The position numbers and the translations under genes are program-made. A stretch of DNA of 64,000 bases, from positions 102,047 to 166,046 of the forward strand of contig JAQTMG010000002.1 of assembly GCA_028714455.1 (NCBI GenBank), given 5' to 3'. Of this stretch, positions 3,939 through 21,026 are shown one piece after another (the stretch's first letter is position 1; each line of letters begins with the position of its first letter). Origin of the DNA: Patescibacteria group bacterium. Its GTDB lineage: Bacteria; Patescibacteriota; Patescibacteriia; CAIXNZ01. Under the pieces are notes generated by a model. It was given only the letters and a program-made list of their open reading frames with translations. It did no database searches and was not told the origin of the DNA.

Positions 3939-4106
3939 ATGAAAAGGACGCTTGCTAATAGGGCAGCTGCTCTTCGACATACTGGAGATGAAGAGAAGAG
4001 GCTATCCCAAATGATTGAGGAGAATGAATACGGCAAAAGGAGAGAAAAATACCGGGAAGAAATTCAAGCTCGCAGGAGGATAATGGCGAAGCATGGCGCA
4101 AGGTAA
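3939..4106 (+). CDS. small hypothetical protein (55 aa, basic), SD-led, GC-richer
   Basis: SD AAAAAGGAGGGAAAATG. Not in the ORF track because it is under 60 aa. Confidence 0.35.
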   Translation: MKRTLANRAAALRHTGDEEKRLSQMIEENEYGKRREKYREEIQARRRIMAKHGAR

Positions 4107-4138
4107 AATAATCCTGACGACAAAAAAGGAGGAAAGAA

Positions 4139-4366
4139 ATGAGAGAAAAAGTAGATCGCAAGGCTAAATTAGCACCCCCAGGTTCAGAACGGGAAAAGTT
4201 TTTTGAGCGCCCTGGCCTGATATCTGTTAATCTGGGACCAGAAGGAATCGACGAGAAGACAGCGAAGAAGTTGAATCAACTCATGAAAGACATCGACGCA
4301 GGAAAAGTAAAGGAGGGTATTCCCGAAAAGGTGCTGGAAAGGGATAAAAGACTCAAGATGGTCTAG
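4139..4366 (+). CDS. small hypothetical protein (75 aa), SD-led, GC-richer
   Basis: SD AAAAAAGGAGGAAAGAAATG, followed by a hairpin terminator. Confidence 0.45.
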   Translation: MREKVDRKAKLAPPGSEREKFFERPGLISVNLGPEGIDEKTAKKLNQLMKDIDAGKVKEGIPEKVLERDKRLKMV

Positions 4367-4404: not shown

Positions 4405-4513
4405 TTGACAAAATATTCTCCTTATGATAAGTTCTTTAAGTGCATATGGCCCTCCCAAGTCAGTATGCACGCTGACGCGCCGACCTGTCACCACCAGGTC
4501 GGCGCATTTTTTT
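4405..4513 (+). ncRNA. candidate small RNA transcription unit (promoter, two hairpins, terminator)
   Basis: TTGACA at 4405, then a plausible -10 TAAGTT at a 17-nt spacing. Hairpin GTGCATA...TATGCAC. Terminator GCGCCGACCTG...CAGGTCGGCGC followed by T7. No ORF. Confidence 0.3.
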
Positions 4514-4660: not shown

Positions 4661-6862
4661 ATGATTAAAAAAACCTATCATGTCCAGGGCATGGATTGCG
4701 CGGCTTGCGCTGTCCAGATTGAAAAAAAATTAAGTAAAATGCCTGAAATAAAAAAAGTCGTGGTTAATTTGGCCACTGGCATGCTTAATATTGAATCAGA
4801 CAATGAGATTCCTTTTGAAGTTTTGCAAAAAGCTGTCGAGGATATTGGTGCTTATAAATTGCACAAAATGGAACCTGGCGCGGCCGGACACGAACACGGC
4901 GCGATGTTGAAAGAAGCGGAAATTAAGAAATTAAGAAATAAAACGATTTTTGGCGTGATTATTTCTGTCCTGGTGATGATTCTGTCTTATTCTCAATTTA
5001 TTCCAATTCTTAATCAGATTTCAAATAATGTTATAAACCTTTTACTTTTGGTTCTGGCCGCGGCCGTGCAGATCTGGTTGGGTTGGCAGTTTTACAAAAG
5101 CACCTGGGGTAGTTTAAAAAGCTTTAACTCGAACATGGATACCTTGATTGCTCTAGGCACGACAAGCGCTTTTGTTTATTCTTTAGCAGCCGTGATTTAT
5201 TCAATAATTAGTAATCAAAATGTTGGCACCTATTTTGACACGGCTGTTGTAATCTTAACTTTAATTATTTTGGGCAAATATCTGGAAGCCAGGGCCAAGG
5301 GCAAGGCCTCTGATGCTATTAAGAATTTAATTAAACTCCAGGCCAAAATTGCGCACCTCATGGTTAATGGGGTGGAAAAAGAAATTGAGCTTGATCAAGT
5401 TAAAATTGGCGATTTAATCATCGTCAGACCCGGTGAAAAAATTCCGGTTGACGGTGAAATTGTTGAGGGCGAATCCTCGATTGACGAAAGCATGATTACT
5501 GGCGAAAGTTTGCCGGTTGATAAAAAGATTGGCGATAAAGTAATTGGTTCAACAATAAATAAATCCGGCTCTTTTACTTTTAAAGCGGAAAAAGTCGGCG
5601 CTGACACTGTTTTGGCCCAGATCATTAAATTGGTTGGCGAAGCCCAGGGCACAAAAGCGCCCATTCAAAATCTGGCTGATATAATCTCCGGCTACTTTGT
5701 GCCGATCGTTTTGTTAATTGCCCTATTTACCTTTATTATCTGGCTTATTGCTGGCCAGGCCTTTGTTTTTTCTTTGGTCATGGGAATTTCCGTTTTAATT
5801 ATTGCCTGTCCGTGCGCACTTGGGTTAGCCACACCAACCGCGATTATTGTCGGCACTGGCAAGGGCGCGCAAGAGGGGATTTTAATTAAGAATGCCGAAG
5901 GCCTGGAAAAGGCCGAGAAAATCAACGTACTTTGTTTTGATAAAACAGGCACTCTGACCGAGGGCCAGCCAGAGGTTCTAAACTTTTCAGACGAGGATAC
6001 TTTAAAGATCGCTTATTCGCTGGAGTCAAAATCAGAACATCCTTTTGCCGCCGCCATCACTAAAAAAGCGCTGGAATATAAATTTGAGCCGCAAAAAATA
6101 ATTGGGTTTAAAGCAATCACTGGCCGAGGCATTTTGGCCAGCATTGAAAATGAAAAATATTATCTTGGCAATCAGGAATTTTTAGCCGAGCAGGGGATTG
6201 AGTTGCCGGCCGAGACCAAAGCAAAAATTTTGGCAGAAGAAAATTTGGCGCGCAGCGTTTTACTTTTGGCAGATGAAAAAAAATATCTGGGTTATATTTC
6301 ACTGGCTGATCCGATTAAGGAAAATGCCAAGAGTTCGATAGACTTATTAAAATCAATGAACATCAAGCCGGTTCTGATGACAGGCGACAATTCAAAGACG
6401 GCCGAGGTCGTGGCTGGTATTTTAGGCATCAATGAGTGGTATGCCAAGATCCTGCCAGATGAAAAGCAAAAGAAAATCTTGAGTCTGCAGGCTGATGGTA
6501 ATAAAGTTGGCATGGTTGGCGACGGTATAAATGACGCGCCAGCTTTAACCCAGTCGGACCTGGGCATTGCCATGGCCACCGGCACTGACGTGGCTATTGA
6601 ATCAGCGGACTTTGTTATTTTAAAAGGCGATTTGAATAAAGTTATCAAAGCCTTGGTTCTTTCCAAAAAAACCATGTCCACGATCAGGGGTAATTTGTTC
6701 TGGGCCTTTATCTATAATATTATCGGCATTCCCATCGCCGCCGGCATTTTATTTCCGTCAACTCATCTTTTGCTTTCCCCGACCATTTCAGCCGCGGCCA
6801 TGGCTTTTAGCTCTTTGTTCGTGGTTTTAAATTCCTTATTGCTAAAACGCGCCAGGATATAA
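4661..6862 (+). CDS. copA: copper-translocating P1B-type ATPase
   Basis: N-terminal HMA motif [11 protein letters not shown] transmembrane motif, DKTGTLT phosphorylation site and GDGINDAP hinge. Confidence 0.9.
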
Positions 6863-12980: not shown

Positions 12981-13070
12981 GGAGAGGTACCAAAGTGGTC
13001 GAATGGGCCGCACTCGAAATGCGGTAGATCAGCAATGGTCTCGCGAGTTCGAATCTCGCCCTCTCCGCCA
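12981..13070 (+). tRNA. tRNA-Ser(CGA)
   Basis: Acceptor GGAGAGG/CCTCTCC. Anticodon stem CCGCA/TGCGG with loop CTCGAAA. Long variable arm. T-arm GCGAG-TTCGAAT-CTCGC. CCA encoded. Confidence 0.85.
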
Positions 13071-13277: not shown

Positions 13278-13475
13278 ATGTCAAACATTACAAAAACACT
13301 TAGAAAACTTAGGGAAGCCAAGGGGTTATCCCAAGAAAAATTGGCGAGATTGGCTGATGTCGCCAATAATACCATTATTAAAATTGAAGCTGGTAAAAAC
13401 CAGAATCCAACGCTTGATACTCTCAAGAAAATTGCGAAAGCTCTTGGGGTTAGCGTTGATGAGTTGATAAGGTAA
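13278..13475 (+). CDS. XRE-family HTH transcriptional regulator
   Basis: KGLSQEKLARLADVANNTIIKIEAG helix-turn-helix. Confidence 0.75.
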   Translation: MSNITKTLRKLREAKGLSQEKLARLADVANNTIIKIEAGKNQNPTLDTLKKIAKALGVSVDELIR

Positions 13476-13479
13476 ATTT

Positions 13480-14379
13480 ATGAAACATAAATCGCTTATC
13501 GCATATCTTGTAATTATCACACTTTTAAGTGCAGTATTTATTGTATTAATGAAATTGTTAGGCCAAAAAGGAAATTATCTCGCTGCTTTTTATATGCTGG
13601 GGCCAGCGATTGCTGCTATTATTACCAGATTATTTTTCTACGATAAAAAGTTTAAGGATGCAAATTTGAGGTTTGGAAAAGTTAAAAATTATTTTAAATT
13701 TTGGGCGATTGCCTTGAGTATAACCGTTTTATCTCTCGTCATTTATACCCTATTAGGTTCAATAAGTTGGGATTTTTCCGGGCAGGTGTTTTTGGGTCAA
13801 TTGGCTAAACAATTTGCACTTACCGGCCAAAATATCAATAACCTTCCCGCTGGTCTTACGCCGCAATTGATGCTGATTATCTATTTTATCGGCGGGTTGA
13901 CCATTTTTAATATTTTGCCCGGGGTTATCACTGGTTTTGGTGAAGAGTTCGGCTGGAGAGGATTTATGTTTCCGCAAATGTACAAAATCAAGCCCTGGGT
14001 GGCTTTTATTGTTGGCGGCTTGATATGGTACGCTTGGCATATCCCACTGGTTCTTGTAATTGCTCAAACACAAACATTTACGATTGCTCAAACAATTCTG
14101 AATGTAGCGGTTCTCGCCATTGGTTCAATCTGCACCCACACTTTTTTGGCGTATGTGTATGTAAAGTCAAAAAATGTCTTTGTGGCTTCTGTGACCCACA
14201 TTACATTGGATAATGTCGCAAGATCGTTTGCCTATTTCATTATTATCCAAAATCAGATAACGGCAAATATCGGGCTGGCAATTACAATGTTAATTGTCGT
14301 GGCAGTTCTGTATTTTTCCAAAGAATGGAAAGTTTTTGAAAATTATTTTAATAAAAGGGAGATTGAAAATTATGAATAA
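13480..14379 (+). CDS. CPBP-family (CAAX/Abi) intramembrane metalloprotease
   Basis: GFGEEFGWRGF motif (EExxxR) and a downstream HxxxN/D-type motif in a polytopic membrane protein. Confidence 0.7.
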   Translation: MKHKSLIAYLVIITLLSAVFIVLMKLLGQKGNYLAAFYMLGPAIAAIITRLFFYDKKFKDANLRFGKVKNYFKFWAIALSITVLSLVIYTLLGSISWDFSGQVFLGQLAKQFALTGQNINNLPAGLTPQLMLIIYFIGGLTIFNILPGVITGFGEEFGWRGFMFPQMYKIKPWVAFIVGGLIWYAWHIPLVLVIAQTQTFTIAQTILNVAVLAIGSICTHTFLAYVYVKSKNVFVASVTHITLDNVARSFAYFIIIQNQITANIGLAITMLIVVAVLYFSKEWKVFENYFNKREIENYE

Positions 14380-14641: not shown

Positions 14642-14680
14642 AGCCGATATTCTTACGAATACCGGCTTTTGATTTTTACT
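14642..14680. terminator. bidirectional terminator hairpin
   Basis: AGCCG-N16-CGGCT flanked by A-runs on one side and T-runs on the other. Confidence 0.55.
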
Positions 14681-15174
14681 GCGGAAAAATTTGGGCAGAG
14701 CTTGGGTTTTGTAAATCGCCAATAATCACCACGCGATTCTCGCCGTTTTGTGAGAATCTCTGAATCATTTGCTCCATGGGTGACTGCACCCTTAAAACCT
14801 GGCCAGGCGGCATCCAAAATCCCATCCGATCGGCTCCTGTGTCCGCGCACCTTACACGCAGACAACCAACAACCTGCAAGGGTTTTTTATTAAAAACAAC
14901 CGCGTAGTCAGGGACCCTGAAATTTTCACCCGCCGCGTATAAGGTTACGGGTTCTCCTGGAAAAATTGGCTTGCCGCACCAGGCGCACCTTATTGTCATG
15001 GCGCTAAAACACTTATGGCAATAAGGAAGTTGGCCATTTTGCGGAATCATTTTGATAATATGTTTTTCGCCCTGGGCGGCGCAGATATCCCAAATTTTGG
15101 TCTCATGACCGCATTGGGCCATGATTTTTCCGCAAAAAAGATTCAAAAAGAACATTCTGGCTTTTAAAAGCATT
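14676..15174 (-). CDS. Cys-rich (zinc-ribbon-like) hypothetical protein, SD-led and GC-richer
   Basis: SD AAAAAGGAGGGCAAAATG at the Met of MLLKARMFF, so the start is at 15174 rather than the track's 15221. Motifs CGHE...CHKC...CAWCGKP. Confidence 0.5.
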
Positions 15175-15298
15175 TTGCCCTCCTTTTTCCTATTTGTATC
15201 ATTCAAATCCAGGATAGTCAAATAGCATTTGAGTTGATTTTCAAAATTTAAATAATTGTTATATAATAAAACCAGTGCTAAAGATTAAATTTAAACCC

Positions 15299-15754
15299 AT
15301 GCAACTAAAAAAAGTGGCGATTATTTGCGGTCTGGCGGCCCTTGTCTTGGCTCTTAGCGGCTGTCTGCCTCAATTTTTCATGCCTTCGGCCAAGAATCAA
15401 AACCTCAATTTCGGCTTTAATCTCAACGAGGATTTGAATGAGAACACAAATGAGAACGCGAATGTGAACGAGCCAGCCGGCGACGGCGACACTCATGTTA
15501 CGAATCCAAACATGACCAGGGAGCGCTGTATTGAATTAATGGCTTATTCTCTCTACGGAGTAACTCTGATGCAACAAGGCAACACCGCGAAATTCATGCT
15601 AATTTCTCAAAAAGTCGCGAATCTGGAAAAGCAGTATAATGTTAACACAGATGATTATGACGAAGTATGCAATAATTTCCTCAACGAAGAACAGTTTATG
15701 ATAGACGTGGAAAAACGCATGCAGCAACTTGGCGCTGACATAACTACCGAATAA
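15299..15754 (+). CDS. lipoprotein with Asn/Glu-rich repeats
   Basis: Signal peptide MQLKKVAIICGLAALVLALSGC (lipobox). NENTNENANVNE repeats. Confidence 0.5.
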   Translation: MQLKKVAIICGLAALVLALSGCLPQFFMPSAKNQNLNFGFNLNEDLNENTNENANVNEPAGDGDTHVTNPNMTRERCIELMAYSLYGVTLMQQGNTAKFMLISQKVANLEKQYNVNTDDYDEVCNNFLNEEQFMIDVEKRMQQLGADITTE

Positions 15755-15799
15755 TCTTGAATCAAATAGTTTGCAAAAAAGCCGTTGATTACTCAACGG

Positions 15800-16210
15800 C
15801 TTTTGACTTTTTGCCTCATGTGTTATAATAATTTTATGGATAGGGGGACATGGCTAACCCAAGCCAGGAGGTGCTCTCATGAAAAAGTTTGTCGGAACCA
15901 TGTCTCGGTTGTCGGGTCTGTAACATGCGGAAGGCAAAGTAACAGGCCTGCGATCAAGGGCGTGTCCGCTAAACCAAGGCGAAAGAGGAGCCTGTTTTTC
16001 TTTCGCCACGCGGACACGCCCACGACAATAATCCCCGTCGGAAAGGGGATAAAAGGATATTAAAAAATCAAAGGAGGAGCTTGCATGGAAAAACTTTTTT
16101 CCAGGCTCGTGGTCGATCTGTAGACTCCTGATACGGAGGAAGCAGATCATCTTAATATTCACGGTCCAAAAAGGACCCCAAACCCCCGAACATAGGTTCG
16201 GGGTTTTTAT
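15800..16210 (+). ncRNA. GC-rich structured region with two tiny SD-led ORFs (candidate ncRNA or leader)
   Basis: 12-bp inverted repeat GGGCGTGTCCGC...GCGGACACGCCC. Hairpin CCCC-GTCGGAAA-GGGG. Terminal CCCCCGAAC-ATAG-GTTCGGGGG followed by T5. Mini-ORFs MKKFVGTMSRLSGL and MEKLFSRLVVDL after AGGAGG. Confidence 0.35.
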
Positions 16211-16270
16211 TTGTATATTTTTTAAAAGTCGAAGTATCGTGGTATAATACTTGTAAATAACCGCTTAACT

Positions 16271-17017
16271 ATGATTAACAAAATTATAAAATTTACTTTT
16301 TTAGGCCTGCTAATAGTGGGTGTTTTTTCACTAATCGCCTGGGTAATCTTTGAGTTCACCCTTGATGATCCAAAGGGTGAGGAAAATGCGGTTAAAAAGA
16401 TTTTTTACCAAGCCGCGAGTATCTTGCCTGTCTACCCGGCGGTTGATTTGACCGTGCCTTACCACCATCAACAGCACGCTCTCTCCTGTGAAGTTGCTTC
16501 CTTAACTATGGCCCTAAATTACAAAGGCGTAAAAGTAACTGAAAACGAGTTAATCGCCCAGCTGCCTTTTTCTTTTACCGGACCTCGCCAGACCGGCAAT
16601 ATCTGGGGCGATCCTAATTTAGGTTTTGTCGGCAACATTGATGGCACCATGCCCAATACTGGCTATGGCGTTTATGAGCAGCCGATTTATGATTTAGCTT
16701 CTAAATATCGCTCGGCTAAAATTATTACCAATGGCACTGTCGCTGATTTAATTACGGAATTAGTAAATGGCAATCCTATCGTTGTCTGGGGAGTGGTCGG
16801 TAGCGGCAAAGATATTTCCTGGAAGACACCTAACGGAAAAGTTATCAGCGCCAAGCTGGATGAGCACGCCAGGACTTTAATCGGCTTTACCGGTACGTCA
16901 GATAATCCCAAATTACTTATTTTGGACGACCCGATTTACGGCAAGATAAGAATGTCAGTCAGCAGCTTTCAAAAAAATTGGGGCATGCTGGATAATAGGG
17001 CAGTGGTAATTTATTAA
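16271..17017 (+). CDS. membrane-anchored papain-like (C39-like) cysteine peptidase domain protein
   Basis: N-terminal transmembrane helix. QQHALSCEVASLTMAL places a Cys nucleophile in a C39-like context. Confidence 0.4.
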   Translation: MINKIIKFTFLGLLIVGVFSLIAWVIFEFTLDDPKGEENAVKKIFYQAASILPVYPAVDLTVPYHHQQHALSCEVASLTMALNYKGVKVTENELIAQLPFSFTGPRQTGNIWGDPNLGFVGNIDGTMPNTGYGVYEQPIYDLASKYRSAKIITNGTVADLITELVNGNPIVVWGVVGSGKDISWKTPNGKVISAKLDEHARTLIGFTGTSDNPKLLILDDPIYGKIRMSVSSFQKNWGMLDNRAVVIY

Positions 17018-20024: not shown

Positions 20025-21026
20025 ATGAACAAATTCTATACTCAATTTAATGACATTTTAAAAGATCAGCCTGCTTACAGAGTTAAGCAAATTAAGCAGG
20101 CTATTTTTGTTGAGCTAATTGATAATTGGGACAAGGCCATGACTTTGCCCAAGAAACTTAGAGCTGAACTGGCAAAAAAAGTTCCATTGGAAGTTAAAGC
20201 GCAAATTTTTGAATCAAAAGATGAGGACGCGATCAAAGCTTTGATTACTTTAGGTGATGGTTTAAAAATTGAAACTGTTTTAATGAAACACAATCGTAGA
20301 AATACTGTTTGCGTTTCCTCTCAAGTCGGCTGCCCTTTGGGCTGTAAATTTTGTGCCACAGGCGCCATGGGATTTAAAAGAAATCTGGAAACCTGGGAAA
20401 TTGTCAGTCAGGTTTTATTCTTTGCCAGAAAATTAAAAATCACCGGCGAAAGAATTGATAACGTGGTTTTCATGGGCATGGGCGAGCCATTTTTAAATTA
20501 CAATAACGTTATGGAGGCCATTAGAATTTTAAATGACGCGCATGGCCTGGCTATTGGTATTCGCCATTTTTCAATTTCAACCATTGGCATAATCGAGGGC
20601 ATTGAAAAATTTGCTGATGAAAAAATGCAAGTCAACCTGGCCATCTCCTTGCACGCGCCAGATGATAAGACCAGAATCAGCATCATTCCTTGCGGCAAAA
20701 AATATACAATTCACAAAATTCTTGAGGCGGTTGACGATTATATTGCCAAAACCAATCGCAAAGTTATGTTTGAATATCTTTTAATAAAAGGGGTTAATGA
20801 TTCTGATGATTTTGCTTTAAAATTAGCGAAATTGATGAAAAAGCCGCTTTATTTTGTCAACCTAATCACGTATAATAAGACTGGAGCCTATCAACCGCCT
20901 TCCACAGATAAAATTAAACATTTCAAAGATATTTTGGAAAAGAACAGAGTTTTTACCACACTGCGCTACAGATTTGGCGCTGATATTGAAGCGGCGTGCG
21001 GACAGCTTGCAGCTGGCAATAAGTAG
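20025..21026 (+). CDS. rlmN: 23S rRNA/tRNA (adenine-C2)-methyltransferase RlmN (radical SAM)
   Basis: CPLGCKFCATG is the CxxxCxxC radical-SAM cluster, set in an RlmN/Cfr-like context. Confidence 0.85.
   Translation: MNKFYTQFNDILKDQPAYRVKQIKQAIFVELIDNWDKAMTLPKKLRAELAKKVPLEVKAQIFESKDEDAIKALITLGDGLKIETVLMKHNRRNTVCVSSQVGCPLGCKFCATGAMGFKRNLETWEIVSQVLFFARKLKITGERIDNVVFMGMGEPFLNYNNVMEAIRILNDAHGLAIGIRHFSISTIGIIEGIEKFADEKMQVNLAISLHAPDDKTRISIIPCGKKYTIHKILEAVDDYIAKTNRKVMFEYLLIKGVNDSDDFALKLAKLMKKPLYFVNLITYNKTGAYQPPSTDKIKHFKDILEKNRVFTTLRYRFGADIEAACGQLAAGNK

Follow-up and report, generated by a model that had tools for sequence, protein, structure and literature searches.

The cry3A STAB-SD, the aprE leader and the ermC leader are ribosome-binding 5′ stabilisers of Gram-positive bacteria, for which the translated sequence is irrelevant. 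Tandem small-peptide operons and minimal genes are also known, such as the psm-alpha operon and mccA, a 7-codon gene followed by a hairpin; these have conserved peptides and dedicated export or modification genes. In type III toxin-antitoxin systems, ToxI repeats of ~36 nt are followed by a terminator and then by the gene of the endoribonuclease toxin. To our knowledge, the regulatory RNAs that Patescibacteria (CPR) possess have hardly been charted, and we found no description in the literature of arrays such as the one analysed here.

This array lies in a 64,000-nt stretch of patescibacterial DNA, called the window below. We infer that it is a stand-alone structured RNA locus, a predicted ~375-nt plus-strand transcription unit with its own promoter and intrinsic terminator. 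Its two modules share that promoter and that terminator, and are laid out with their neighbours as follows.

15275-15754: upstream lipoprotein gene, an orphan
15777-15804, plus strand: intrinsic terminator of the lipoprotein gene (12-bp stem and T run), the 5′ boundary of the unit
15803-15832, plus strand: predicted array promoter, with -35 TTGACT (15803-15808) and extended -10 TGTTATAAT (15821-15829)
15836-15865, plus strand: 5′ leader of module 1, conserved, with the motifs GGGGGA and AACCCAAGCC
15845-15906, plus strand: hairpin A, a prediction only, pairing GGGACATGG (15845-15853) with CCATGTCTC (15898-15906)
15866-15873, plus strand: Shine-Dalgarno sequence (SD) 1, AGGAGGTG, with AGGAGG at 15866-15871, within a GGAGGTGCTC motif
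15879-15923, plus strand: mini-ORF 1, MKKFVGTMSRLSGL, 14 codons and TAA
15907-15955, plus strand: hairpin B of module 1, base helix GGGTCTGT/ACAGGCCT, with compensatory changes across five modules
15958-16021, plus strand: hairpin C, a 12-bp perfect inverted repeat with an inner hairpin inserted
15958-15969 and 16010-16021, plus strand: outer 12-bp perfect repeat of hairpin C, GGGCGTGTCCGC and GCGGACACGCCC
15978-15989 and 15996-16007, plus strand: inner 12-bp hairpin of hairpin C, GGCGAAAGAGGA and TTTTCTTTCGCC
16031-16050, plus strand: hairpin D, ATCCCC-GTCGGAAA-GGGGAT, at the start of module 2
16051-16071, plus strand: leader of module 2, AAAAGGATATTAAAAAATCAA, kept in unit b of relative L008
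16072-16077, plus strand: SD 2, AGGAGG
16085-16123, plus strand: mini-ORF 2, MEKLFSRLVVDL, 12 codons and TAG, with its CTG and stop within hairpin B2
16111-16151, plus strand: hairpin B2, in module 2, GGTCGATCTG...CAGATCATC around a CTCC/GGAG inner stem
16163-16177, plus strand: small hairpin GGTCC-AAAAA-GGACC
16184-16210, plus strand: intrinsic terminator of the array, CCCCGAAC-ATAG-GTTCGGGG and T run, with the stem at 16184-16203
16221-16248, plus strand: separate promoter of the C39-like peptidase gene, TTTAAA-N16-TGGTATAAT, outside the array
16271-17017, plus strand: C39-like peptidase gene (Peptidase_C39_2), the conserved neighbour 3′ of the array

The array promoter lies directly 3′ of the lipoprotein gene's terminator, and transcription is predicted to start at ~15836; no minus-strand promoter was detected within the array. 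Transcription, translation and the RNA ends are all read from the sequence. The original prediction of a structured RNA locus is borne out by the promoter and terminator and by the strength of the fold (z = -8.06), as are the perfect inverted repeat enclosing another hairpin, the strong terminal terminator and the two 12-14-codon ORFs behind perfect AGGAGG sequences, whose SD, start and stop are kept in homologues. A CCCC/GGGG hairpin described as GAAA-capped does exist (hairpin D), but its loop is 8 nt long (GUCGGAAA) and there is no GAAA tetraloop. That first description lacked the promoter and missed that the region is a tandem array of homologous modules, of which the hairpins, including the 12-bp inverted repeat, are conserved parts.

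The predicted fold of the array region is stronger than expected by chance, because the plus strand has a minimum free energy (MFE) of -156.5 kcal/mol against -110.6 +/- 5.7 for shuffled sequences. The minus strand of the same region has a z of -5.9, and the homologous arrays described below also fold strongly (z = -7.24 in L008 and -6.28 in L138). In a scan of 319 non-overlapping 200-nt segments, the lowest MFE (-86.5) belongs to 15836-16035, which is fifth by z; the adjacent segment is twelfth by z. The region had also been called a GC-rich island, which holds relative to its AT-rich intergenic flanks (GC 0.475-0.49 vs 0.30-0.37) but not relative to the coding regions of the window, where GC reaches 0.40-0.53.

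In both mini-ORFs the spacer between AGGAGG and ATG is exactly 7 nt. Hairpin A would enclose SD 1 and the start of mini-ORF 1, and SD 1 is partly paired in the predicted fold (mean unpaired probability 0.33). The final CTG codon and the stop of mini-ORF 1 lie inside the 5′ strand of hairpin B. Ordinary genes of this genome also carry AGGAGG-type SDs, and therefore those of the mini-ORFs should be read by ribosomes. Two longer ORFs across the array (92 aa, plus strand; 102 aa, minus strand) have no counterpart in L008 or L138, and we rejected a protein-coding reading of them.

In the two nearest relatives, L008 and L138, the place between tRNA-Ser(CGA) and the C39-like peptidase gene is likewise taken by a homologous array that is free of genes. 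The order in L008 is tRNA-Ser(GGA), BipA (95% identical), tRNA-Ser(CGA), a 540-nt gene-free array, C39 (76%) and, further on, DUF2207; in L138 a 475-nt gene-free stretch lies 5′ of C39. The module count differs, with two in the window, three in L008 and one plus one degenerate in L138, and the modules are mosaic in make-up. A single copy of the GGAGGTGCTC motif is present in the window, L008 has three at spacings of 176 and 183 nt, and six GTDB relatives have none. In L138 the second segment is degraded and its SD is lost (GAGAGACCCCATGG), which suggests that ribosome loading is dispensable in some modules. Our comparative set covers three independent loci with six or seven modules, from a single narrow clade.

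Outside these loci, blastn and nhmmer searches with the array against the window, the six GTDB relatives (L002-L007), phages and plasmids returned self matches only. Six GTDB C39 loci (67-75% identity) show neither an array nor conserved neighbours, and the upstream lipoprotein, tried as a synteny anchor, has no homologues save itself. Among nine further C39 homologues examined for context, the contigs of P0004 have ~520-nt gene-free gaps, and the others either have genes or tRNAs directly upstream or are cut off by a contig edge. A scan for GGAGGTGCTC followed after 0-2 nt by ATGAARAAG matched seven viral stretches and at least 120 metagenome stretches, essentially all of them ordinary gene starts (for example of signal peptides) without array features, and we discarded them as further arrays. 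The 12-bp inverted repeat had no match in the viral scan, and the idea that hairpin C is a dispersed REP-like or CRISPR-like repeat was rejected, as no other copies occur in the window or in any locus. Gene callers leave the array region empty or fill it with spurious ORFs, such as a '94-aa gene' over the L008 tRNA, and in the assemblies of several relatives a contig ends inside or just 3′ of the region.

Aligning the copies shows which parts are conserved: the -10 box, the 5′ leader, the region from SD through spacer to start, hairpin B and the GTCCCGC...GCGGGAC hairpin. The -10 box TATAATAATTT and the ensuing leader are kept in L008, in L008 (units a and c) and L138 (unit 1) the two leader motifs of module 1 likewise stand 5′ of the SD, and hairpin D has the L008 counterpart ACCCCTGA...TCAGGGAT. 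Homologous modules have an SD, a 7-8-nt spacer, an AUG or GUG start and an in-frame stop 12-15 codons on. The start codon is AUG four times and GUG twice, never a non-start codon, and is followed by AAR-AAG-YUN in these six modules. Pairwise identity in the start region is 0.68, compared to 0.53 +/- 0.05 in shuffles, whereas the ORF interiors are at chance (0.48 vs 0.43 +/- 0.09), even in positional orthologues with about 80% identity in the flanking leader. In four modules, each with a different ORF length, CUG and a following UAA, UAG or UGA are in frame with the start, at offsets of 39, 33, 42 and 30 nt. The predicted peptides are 12-15 aa long, apart from a basic one of 25 aa; an initial MKK(L/F) recurs among them, as does a Leu close to the C-terminus.

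The original prediction had named covariation and an Rfam search as checks, and compensatory changes are indeed present in hairpins B and C across the homologous modules. In hairpin B, 92.5% of cells are paired (74.8% in shuffles) and five of eight pairs have changed on both sides, a count reached by 2 of 500 shuffles; in hairpin C, 97.7% are paired and two pairs have changed on both sides. The stems were extracted by hand, which biases these covariation counts towards the structure. At the penultimate codon (GGU, GAU or GUU) the second position alters the amino acid (G, D or V) while the base pair is retained. In L008 and L138, the homologues of hairpin C are the GTCCCGC...GCGGGAC hairpins and terminators; this hairpin is the terminator itself in terminal modules, and in module 1 of the window it has no U tract.

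As for the Rfam search, no known family explains the locus. At the gathering threshold of Rfam 15, only three tRNAs were matched in the window; at E <= 10, 15600-16400 gave only terminator-like chance matches far below gathering, and the L008 and L138 arrays likewise matched no family. ARAGORN found no tmRNA in the window and there was no Rfam match to one, RNase P, SRP and 6S RNAs gave no Rfam match at E <= 10 either, and inspection of the array by eye revealed neither the CR-I motif GAGGAAAGUCC nor the SRP domain IV motifs. A type I toxin-antitoxin locus, which would call for a small hydrophobic toxin of about 18-60 aa and an antisense RNA that overlaps or adjoins it, was rejected, as the peptides are 12-15 aa long (one is 25 aa and basic) and have no hydrophobic helix, and no minus-strand promoter was detected. 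Because there are a promoter and a terminator, a z of -8.06, and an SD, start and frame kept in six modules of three genomes, the array would be classed as a small-ORF-bearing (dual-function) sRNA, by kind and not as a homology family.

Taken together, these observations lead us to favour, tentatively, a model in which the locus is a clade-restricted, independently transcribed, modular and translated structured RNA, and in which ribosome loading, not the peptide, matters. A module of ~180-200 nt has four parts: a short conserved leader, a ribosome-binding site (RBS), a mini-ORF and a GC-rich hairpin. Its near-consensus RBS consists of AGGAGG(UG), a 7-8-nt spacer and AUG or GUG, then AAR-AAG-YUN; the 12-15-codon frame ends, with CUG and a stop, in the 5′ strand of conserved hairpin B; and the GC-rich part is hairpin C (core GUCCCGC...GCGGGAC), the intrinsic terminator in terminal modules. 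Ribosomes would load on every module and translate its mini-cistron, and selection would act on ribosome engagement and on prompt termination at the hairpin foot rather than on peptide sequence. By analogy with Bacillus systems, the RBS and mini-ORF would most likely serve as a ribosome-dependent 5′ protector of the downstream structured RNA, similar to STAB-SD or ermC/aprE, with the in-frame stop sparing hairpins B-D from ribosomes ploughing through. The sequence prerequisites of a STAB-SD are present: a strong SD lies 30 nt from the predicted 5′ end, and the peptide is unconstrained. If the pattern of conserved RBS, frame and hairpins holds, the array would be a clean natural instance of a small structured RNA selected for being translated, and this in an organism whose regulatory repertoire is minimal. 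It is a concrete candidate regulatory RNA that can be tested by comparison, with no known bacterial sRNA family detected here.

The conservation of MKK(L/F) and of the C-terminal Leu would also fit a peptide product. On that reading, very small, fast-evolving peptides (12-25 aa), encoded by the array as a polycistronic operon, would themselves be the functional products, and the hairpins would only stabilise and terminate the mRNA; we consider this unlikely. In its favour, SD, spacer and start codon are optimal in every module, AUG and GUG interchange, and four different ORF lengths all preserve the frame. Diversifying secreted peptides show just such a conserved N-terminus before a hypervariable remainder, and the products could be secreted or act in signalling, possibly linked to the adjacent C39-like peptidase, whose gene adjoins all three array-bearing loci. 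That peptidase is a membrane or secreted protein. Counting against a functional peptide are the chance-level interiors of positional orthologues and a penultimate residue whose changes go along with the RNA pairing. A double-glycine leader, a signal peptide and a hydrophobic helix are all missing from the peptides, the second segment of L138 has no SD, and C39 homologues at 70-85% identity exist without any array. Array neighbours are the orphan lipoprotein, Peptidase_C39_2 and DUF2207; no maturase or transporter gene adjoins the array, and the radical-SAM gene ~4 kb downstream (20025-21026) is RlmN (TIGR00048, 365 bits). A RiPP-like locus, as originally suggested, is thus contradicted by RlmN, the missing maturase and the 12-14-aa peptides with unconserved interiors. 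We also rejected a double-glycine (class II) bacteriocin or pheromone locus, since none of six peptides has a GG leader and the C39-like protein, a stand-alone Peptidase_C39_2 of 248 aa, has no ABC transporter domain. If functional peptides were nevertheless made, the mini-ORFs would be among the shortest bacterial genes known.

A bolder form of the ribosome-loading model, to which we assign little probability, is that Patescibacteria have a class of modular 'ribosome-engaging' RNAs not described before, to which the array would belong, with ribosome loading as the selected function and an irrelevant peptide. Such an RNA might be a sensor or buffer of translational capacity, or a self-protecting scaffold for structured regulatory RNA. 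The window has a second structured locus, unrelated to the array, on the minus strand (26445-26040), with a strong SD and a 10-codon ORF at its start. This locus fits a general 'RBS cap' on structured RNAs of this genome, which speaks for the ribosome-loading model favoured above, and under the class proposal it would be another instance of the same design.

An alternative that we regard as improbable is that the array is a cis leader of the C39-like peptidase gene, in which mini-ORF translation modulates read-through of the terminator hairpins and thereby regulates transcription into that gene (leader-peptide attenuation). Array, terminator and C39 follow each other in this order, within about 65 nt, in all three loci, and the stop codon lies inside a hairpin directly 5′ of terminator-type hairpins. 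Classical leader peptides are of similar length, such as the 14-aa trpL. Against this, the C39 gene has its own promoter after the strong terminator, and the surroundings of that promoter's -10 box show good conservation in the L008 and L138 alignment; both points also count against the earlier suggestion that the array is a classical leader of the gene 3′ of it. Regulatory codons do not occur in runs, inspection showed no alternative (antiterminator) pairing of hairpin B, by its 3′ strand, with the 5′ strand of hairpin C, hairpin C of module 1 lacks a U tract, and most C39 orthologues have no array. On these grounds a leader-peptide attenuator was rejected.

A further improbable reading takes the array as non-functional: the 5′ end and the terminator of a small gene, duplicated in tandem and now decaying, in a variable intergenic region beside a tRNA integration site. 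The array adjoins tRNA-Ser(CGA), and in the window a 2.7-kb orphan-gene insertion lies beside that tRNA gene. Decay would be in keeping with the variable number of mosaic modules, with the degraded second segment of L138 and with the finding of no homologue outside one narrow clade. It seems a poor account, however, of a promoter, start regions, in-frame stops, compensated hairpins and a terminator that were all kept while C39 is only 76% identical and the ORF interiors were randomised.

Finally, the array might be a purely non-coding sponge or decoy with incidental ORFs, in which SD/GGA repeats titrate CsrA, as CsrB and RsmZ do, or 30S subunits. CsrB is of similar length to ~375 nt. The window array holds 16 GGA in 348 nt (9.1 +/- 2.1 in shuffles, P = 0.0015; 3.8 +/- 2.3 genome-wide), and GGAUA-type motifs recur 15-40 nt 5′ of each SD. 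In addition, csrA is reported among the highly expressed genes of ultra-small groundwater prokaryotes (PMC9938205). We nevertheless downgraded the CsrA-sponge reading to very improbable, and rejected a CsrB/Rsm-type RNA, because the enrichment fails to replicate in the homologues (13 vs 11.7, P = 0.37, in L008; 9 vs 6.0, P = 0.09, in L138). GGA was chosen post hoc from the sequence, which creates a multiple-testing problem, the predicted fold leaves only 3-5 of the 16 unpaired, a search of the 64-kb window gave no csrA gene motif, and this reading does not explain why start codon and reading frame are maintained.

Returning to the known systems, the array resembles ToxI arrays in being a tandem direct-repeat RNA followed by a terminator and a conserved protein gene. 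Unlike ToxI, its unit is ~180 nt long and carries an RBS and an ORF, and the downstream gene encodes a C39-like peptidase with its own promoter and no endoribonuclease. With psm-alpha and mccA it shares several very short SD-led cistrons on one short, hairpin-stabilised transcript, as predicted here, but its ORF interiors are randomised and no partner genes are evident. CsrB and RsmZ are matched in length, in repeated purine-rich GGA motifs and in the terminal intrinsic terminator; the GGA density, however, is absent from the homologues, most GGA are paired and there is no Rfam match, and CsrB-type RNAs, in contrast to the array, keep no start codons or reading frames. The attenuators trpL, pheL and ermCL likewise combine 12-15-codon ORFs and a strong RBS with hairpins and an intrinsic terminator upstream of a gene, whereas the array has repeated modules and an independent conserved promoter, and neither regulatory codon runs nor an evident antiterminator.

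The dual-function sRNAs S. aureus RNAIII/hld, B. subtilis SR1/SR1P and E. coli SgrS/SgrT are also promoter-to-terminator units of a few hundred nt with hairpins and SD-led small ORFs. They have no sequence or Rfam relationship to the array, whose ORFs are much shorter (12-15 codons), tandem and without peptide conservation. The cry3A STAB-SD, aprE and ermC stabilisers belong to 5′ UTRs of long coding mRNAs, whereas the downstream 'cargo' in the array is only hairpins and further modules. Like them, the array has a strong SD near the predicted 5′ end of a structured RNA and a predicted 5′ stem-loop, and this likeness would explain how a conserved RBS can go together with an unconstrained peptide.

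Positions 15800-16210, flanked by an orphan lipoprotein gene (15275-15754) on one side and a Peptidase_C39_2 gene (16271-17017; here C39) on the other, hold an array of two modules with its own predicted promoter and terminator.

Elements of the array locus (array on the plus strand)
15777-15804, the upstream lipoprotein gene's own terminator, overlapping the array promoter
15803-15808 and 15821-15829, array promoter, -35 TTGACT and extended -10 TGTTATAAT
15866 and 16072, AGGAGG sites, with an ATG exactly 7 nt after each
15879-15923, ORF1
15958-15969 / 16010-16021, 12-bp perfect inverted repeat, enclosing an inner 12-bp hairpin
16031-16050, CCCC/GGGG hairpin with an 8-nt loop, GUCGGAAA
16085-16123, ORF2
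16184-16203, stem of the strong intrinsic terminator, plus T run, ~375 nt past the promoter and ending the unit
16221-16248, separate second promoter, for the C39 gene, TTTAAA-N16-TGGTATAAT

The original prediction had described the inverted repeat around a second hairpin, the strong terminal terminator and two mini-ORFs behind perfect AGGAGG sites, and all of these are present. The CCCC/GGGG hairpin also stands, but the GAAA tetraloop said to cap it does not. That the region is structured is borne out by folding: the plus strand has a minimum free energy of -156.5 kcal/mol versus -110.6 ± 5.7 for dinucleotide shuffles (z = -8.06), and the minus strand folds less strongly (z = -5.9). Among 319 non-overlapping 200-nt stretches of the window, the first half of the array has the lowest free energy and the fifth-best z, and the second half ranks twelfth; the remaining top-scoring stretches hold a tRNA, terminators or intergenic regions. 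As modeled, the structure of the array exceeds chance. No known family explains it: there was no match in Rfam 15 at gathering thresholds, only terminator look-alikes, none meaningful, at E ≤ 10, and no tmRNA by ARAGORN. The suggestion of a RiPP-like locus fails, since the radical-SAM gene 4 kb downstream encodes RlmN and the other neighbors are orphans or DUF2207, leaving no RiPP context.

The genome is a Patescibacteria MAG, and an identical copy of the locus occurs in the Logan assembly L001. Among 5.8 billion proteins, the nearest relative of the C39-like protein is no closer than 76%, and six GTDB loci with C39 at 67-75% identity show neither synteny nor similarity to the array. The decisive find on array homology is L008, a JGI contig whose proteins share 95% (BipA), 76% (C39) and 58% (DUF2207) identity with those of the window. 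Its order is tRNA-Ser(GGA), BipA, tRNA-Ser(CGA), terminator, promoter, a 540-nt stretch without genes, and C39, which is also that of the window except for ~2.7 kb of extra genes between tRNA and array. The gene-free stretch (fold z = -7.2) consists of three tandem units, each starting GGAGGTGCTC, at 4437, 4613 and 4796. A further homologous array (fold z = -6.3) lies upstream of C39 in L138, from Logan run SRR22315506, an accession near that of L001. Contigs of a fourth relative, P0004, have ~520-nt gaps without genes at the same place, a putative array. C39 proteins of L008, L138 and P0004 share 86-90% identity with one another, and P0003 and P0007, somewhat more distant, have no array upstream of C39. 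From this distribution, the array is an old feature of a narrow clade, and some members have since lost or moved it.

Several features of these loci are recorded here as separate observations. The ~2.7-kb insert relative to L008 (13100-15800) follows tRNA-Ser(CGA) (12981-13070) and resembles a tRNA-site island; no integrase was seen.

Genes of the insert
13278-13475, XRE-type HTH regulator
13480-14379, CPBP/Rce1-like protease
106-aa ORF
14676-15221, minus strand, Cys-rich 181-aa orphan
15275-15754, orphan lipoprotein, no homologue among 5.8 billion proteins

In L008, the 5' half of the tRNA-Ser(CGA) of the window is duplicated as GGAGAGGTACCAAAGTGGTCGAATGGGCCGCACTCG at 4168-4205, just upstream of the contig's own tRNA-Ser(CGA) (4260-4348), which differs in sequence from the window's; the half copy may have been left behind when a tRNA was replaced or an element integrated. 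A 94-aa gene called in L008 overlies tRNA and was rejected as spurious. The second array segment of L138 (213-410) keeps hairpins, terminator and a CATGGA start-like site and has lost its SD (GAGAGACCCCATGG), and so appears to be a degenerate module. Three relatives have contig ends at the array region (L138 starts within the array, and the edge cuts the 5' end of C39 in L145 and L146), which could be assembly breaks from tandem repeats or population heterogeneity. A metagenome motif scan gave, among the matches listed, mostly ordinary gene starts, and by chance a conserved family of 28-32-aa ORFs (MKKERQDETQFTTKIGGKTSLGPSYFAL; contigs L057, L098, L101 and L068, GC 0.35-0.38) unrelated to the array.

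Each module runs leader, RBS, reading frame, hairpin B, A-rich spacer and hairpin C. One leader type, GGGGGA...AACCCAARCC, is found in window unit 1, L008 units a and c and L138 unit 1; the other, a CCCC/GGGG hairpin followed by GGGAUAAMAGGAUA...AUUAAAAUCA, in window unit 2 and L008 unit b. The RBS, (A)GGAGG(UG), is followed after 7-8 nt by the start codon (AUG in four modules, GUG in two) and AAR-AAG-YUN, and the reading frames span 12-15 codons, with a single exception of 25. The 5' strand of hairpin B includes the final CUG codon and the stop. Hairpin C has the core GUCCCGC...GCGGGAC; in window module 1 it takes the form of the 12-bp inverted repeat, its loop carrying a 40-nt hairpin as an insertion. 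A U tract, absent from internal modules, follows hairpin C in L008 unit c and L138 unit 1, where the hairpin thus acts as a terminator.

Comparison across three independent array loci, all from one narrow clade, revealed conservation in the L008 and L138 arrays. Between window and L008, the -10 box and first ~45 nucleotides of the predicted transcript have 79% mean column identity. Mean pairwise identity in the start region (-40 to +12) is 0.68 versus 0.53 ± 0.05 in shuffled controls, whereas ORF interiors are at chance (0.48 versus 0.43 ± 0.09), even among positional orthologues, and no long ORF is common to all three loci on either strand. The frame is kept all the same: in four modules a conserved CUG-UAA/UAG/UGA motif comes 39, 33, 42 and 30 nt past the start, each distance divisible by three. 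L008 unit b has UAC in place of this stop, and its ORF runs two codons further; in L138 unit 1 the CUG-stop region is offset by 1 nt, yet an ORF of 14 codons is retained. With five sequences and stems extracted by hand, 92.5% of hairpin B cells are paired versus 74.8% in shuffles (equaled by 0 of 500), both sides have changed in five of its eight pairs (reached by 2 of 500), and hairpin C is largely invariant with two pairs differing on both sides, counts that are suggestive but fall short of statistical proof. In the penultimate codon, the second base pairs in hairpin B as G-C, A-U, U-A or G-U across modules, and these swaps alter the amino acid (Gly, Asp, Val) yet preserve the helix.

Taken together, the RBS and start, frame, stop position and hairpins are conserved and the peptide varies freely. 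This pattern fits selection for ribosome loading and prompt termination on a structured RNA, and accords less well with a peptide operon under purifying selection. Functional peptides that evolve fast, and may be linked to the adjoining C39-like peptidase, are favored by that gene's position and by the conserved MKK(L/F) start; we consider them unlikely, given the randomized ORF interiors, a penultimate residue that varies as RNA pairing dictates, the absence of leader, export and maturation features, and the many C39 orthologues without an array. A role as cis leader for C39 is disfavored as improbable, because a strong terminator lies between array and gene, C39 has its own conserved promoter, and no alternative pairings were found by inspection. 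Equally improbable is decaying junk, since promoter, start sites, frame, pairing and terminator were kept through the same divergence that randomized the ORF interiors. Least probable is a CsrA sponge: the window array has 16 GGA motifs (P = 0.0015) and csrA is reported as highly expressed in ultra-small groundwater prokaryotes (PMC9938205), but the enrichment is not present in L008 or L138 and the majority of the motifs are predicted to be paired.

Elsewhere in the window, a second candidate structured RNA (26445-26040, minus strand) comes after the terminator that ends the gene for a 52-aa membrane protein. It consists of promoter-like TTGATATTATAAA, AAAGGAGGTG, a 10-codon ORF (MYKNLNFITA), GC-rich structure spanning ~350 nt and, as a strong terminator, GCACACC...GGTGTGC with a T run, with fold z = -4.2, no Rfam match at E ≤ 5 and no credible ORF on either strand. 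Likeness to the array is confined to the opening (promoter, SD, short ORF), where its leader matches that of array module 2 over 23 nt at 91%; this shared opening hints that the genome employs the same design in more than one place. A promoter-to-terminator unit of ~70-100 nt at 4405-4510 (plus strand; TTGACA...TATGATAAG, hairpin GCGCCGACCTG...CAGGTCGGCGC and a T run) is a possible sRNA or leader. It lies between a heavy-metal P-type ATPase gene (4661-6862) and two SD-led, highly charged and basic small proteins of 55 and 75 aa (Lys, Arg and Glu rich; 3939-4366, plus strand) directly after a 485-aa gene.

For the array as a ribosome-loaded structured RNA, the SD sites should be recognized by ribosomes, because this genome also uses AGGAGG(TG) on ordinary genes. 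We tentatively propose that the RBS and mini-cistron near the 5' end of each module would protect the structured RNA downstream, and that the in-frame stop at the foot of hairpin B would keep ribosomes from unfolding it. The analogy is to the Bacillus STAB-SD, aprE and ermC leaders, which the array would resemble in the proposed protection of downstream RNA by an RBS near the 5' end. The array belongs to no described family. It is alike in kind to small-ORF-bearing sRNAs, but differs from them in its unusual tandem modular design and in conservation that is independent of the peptide.
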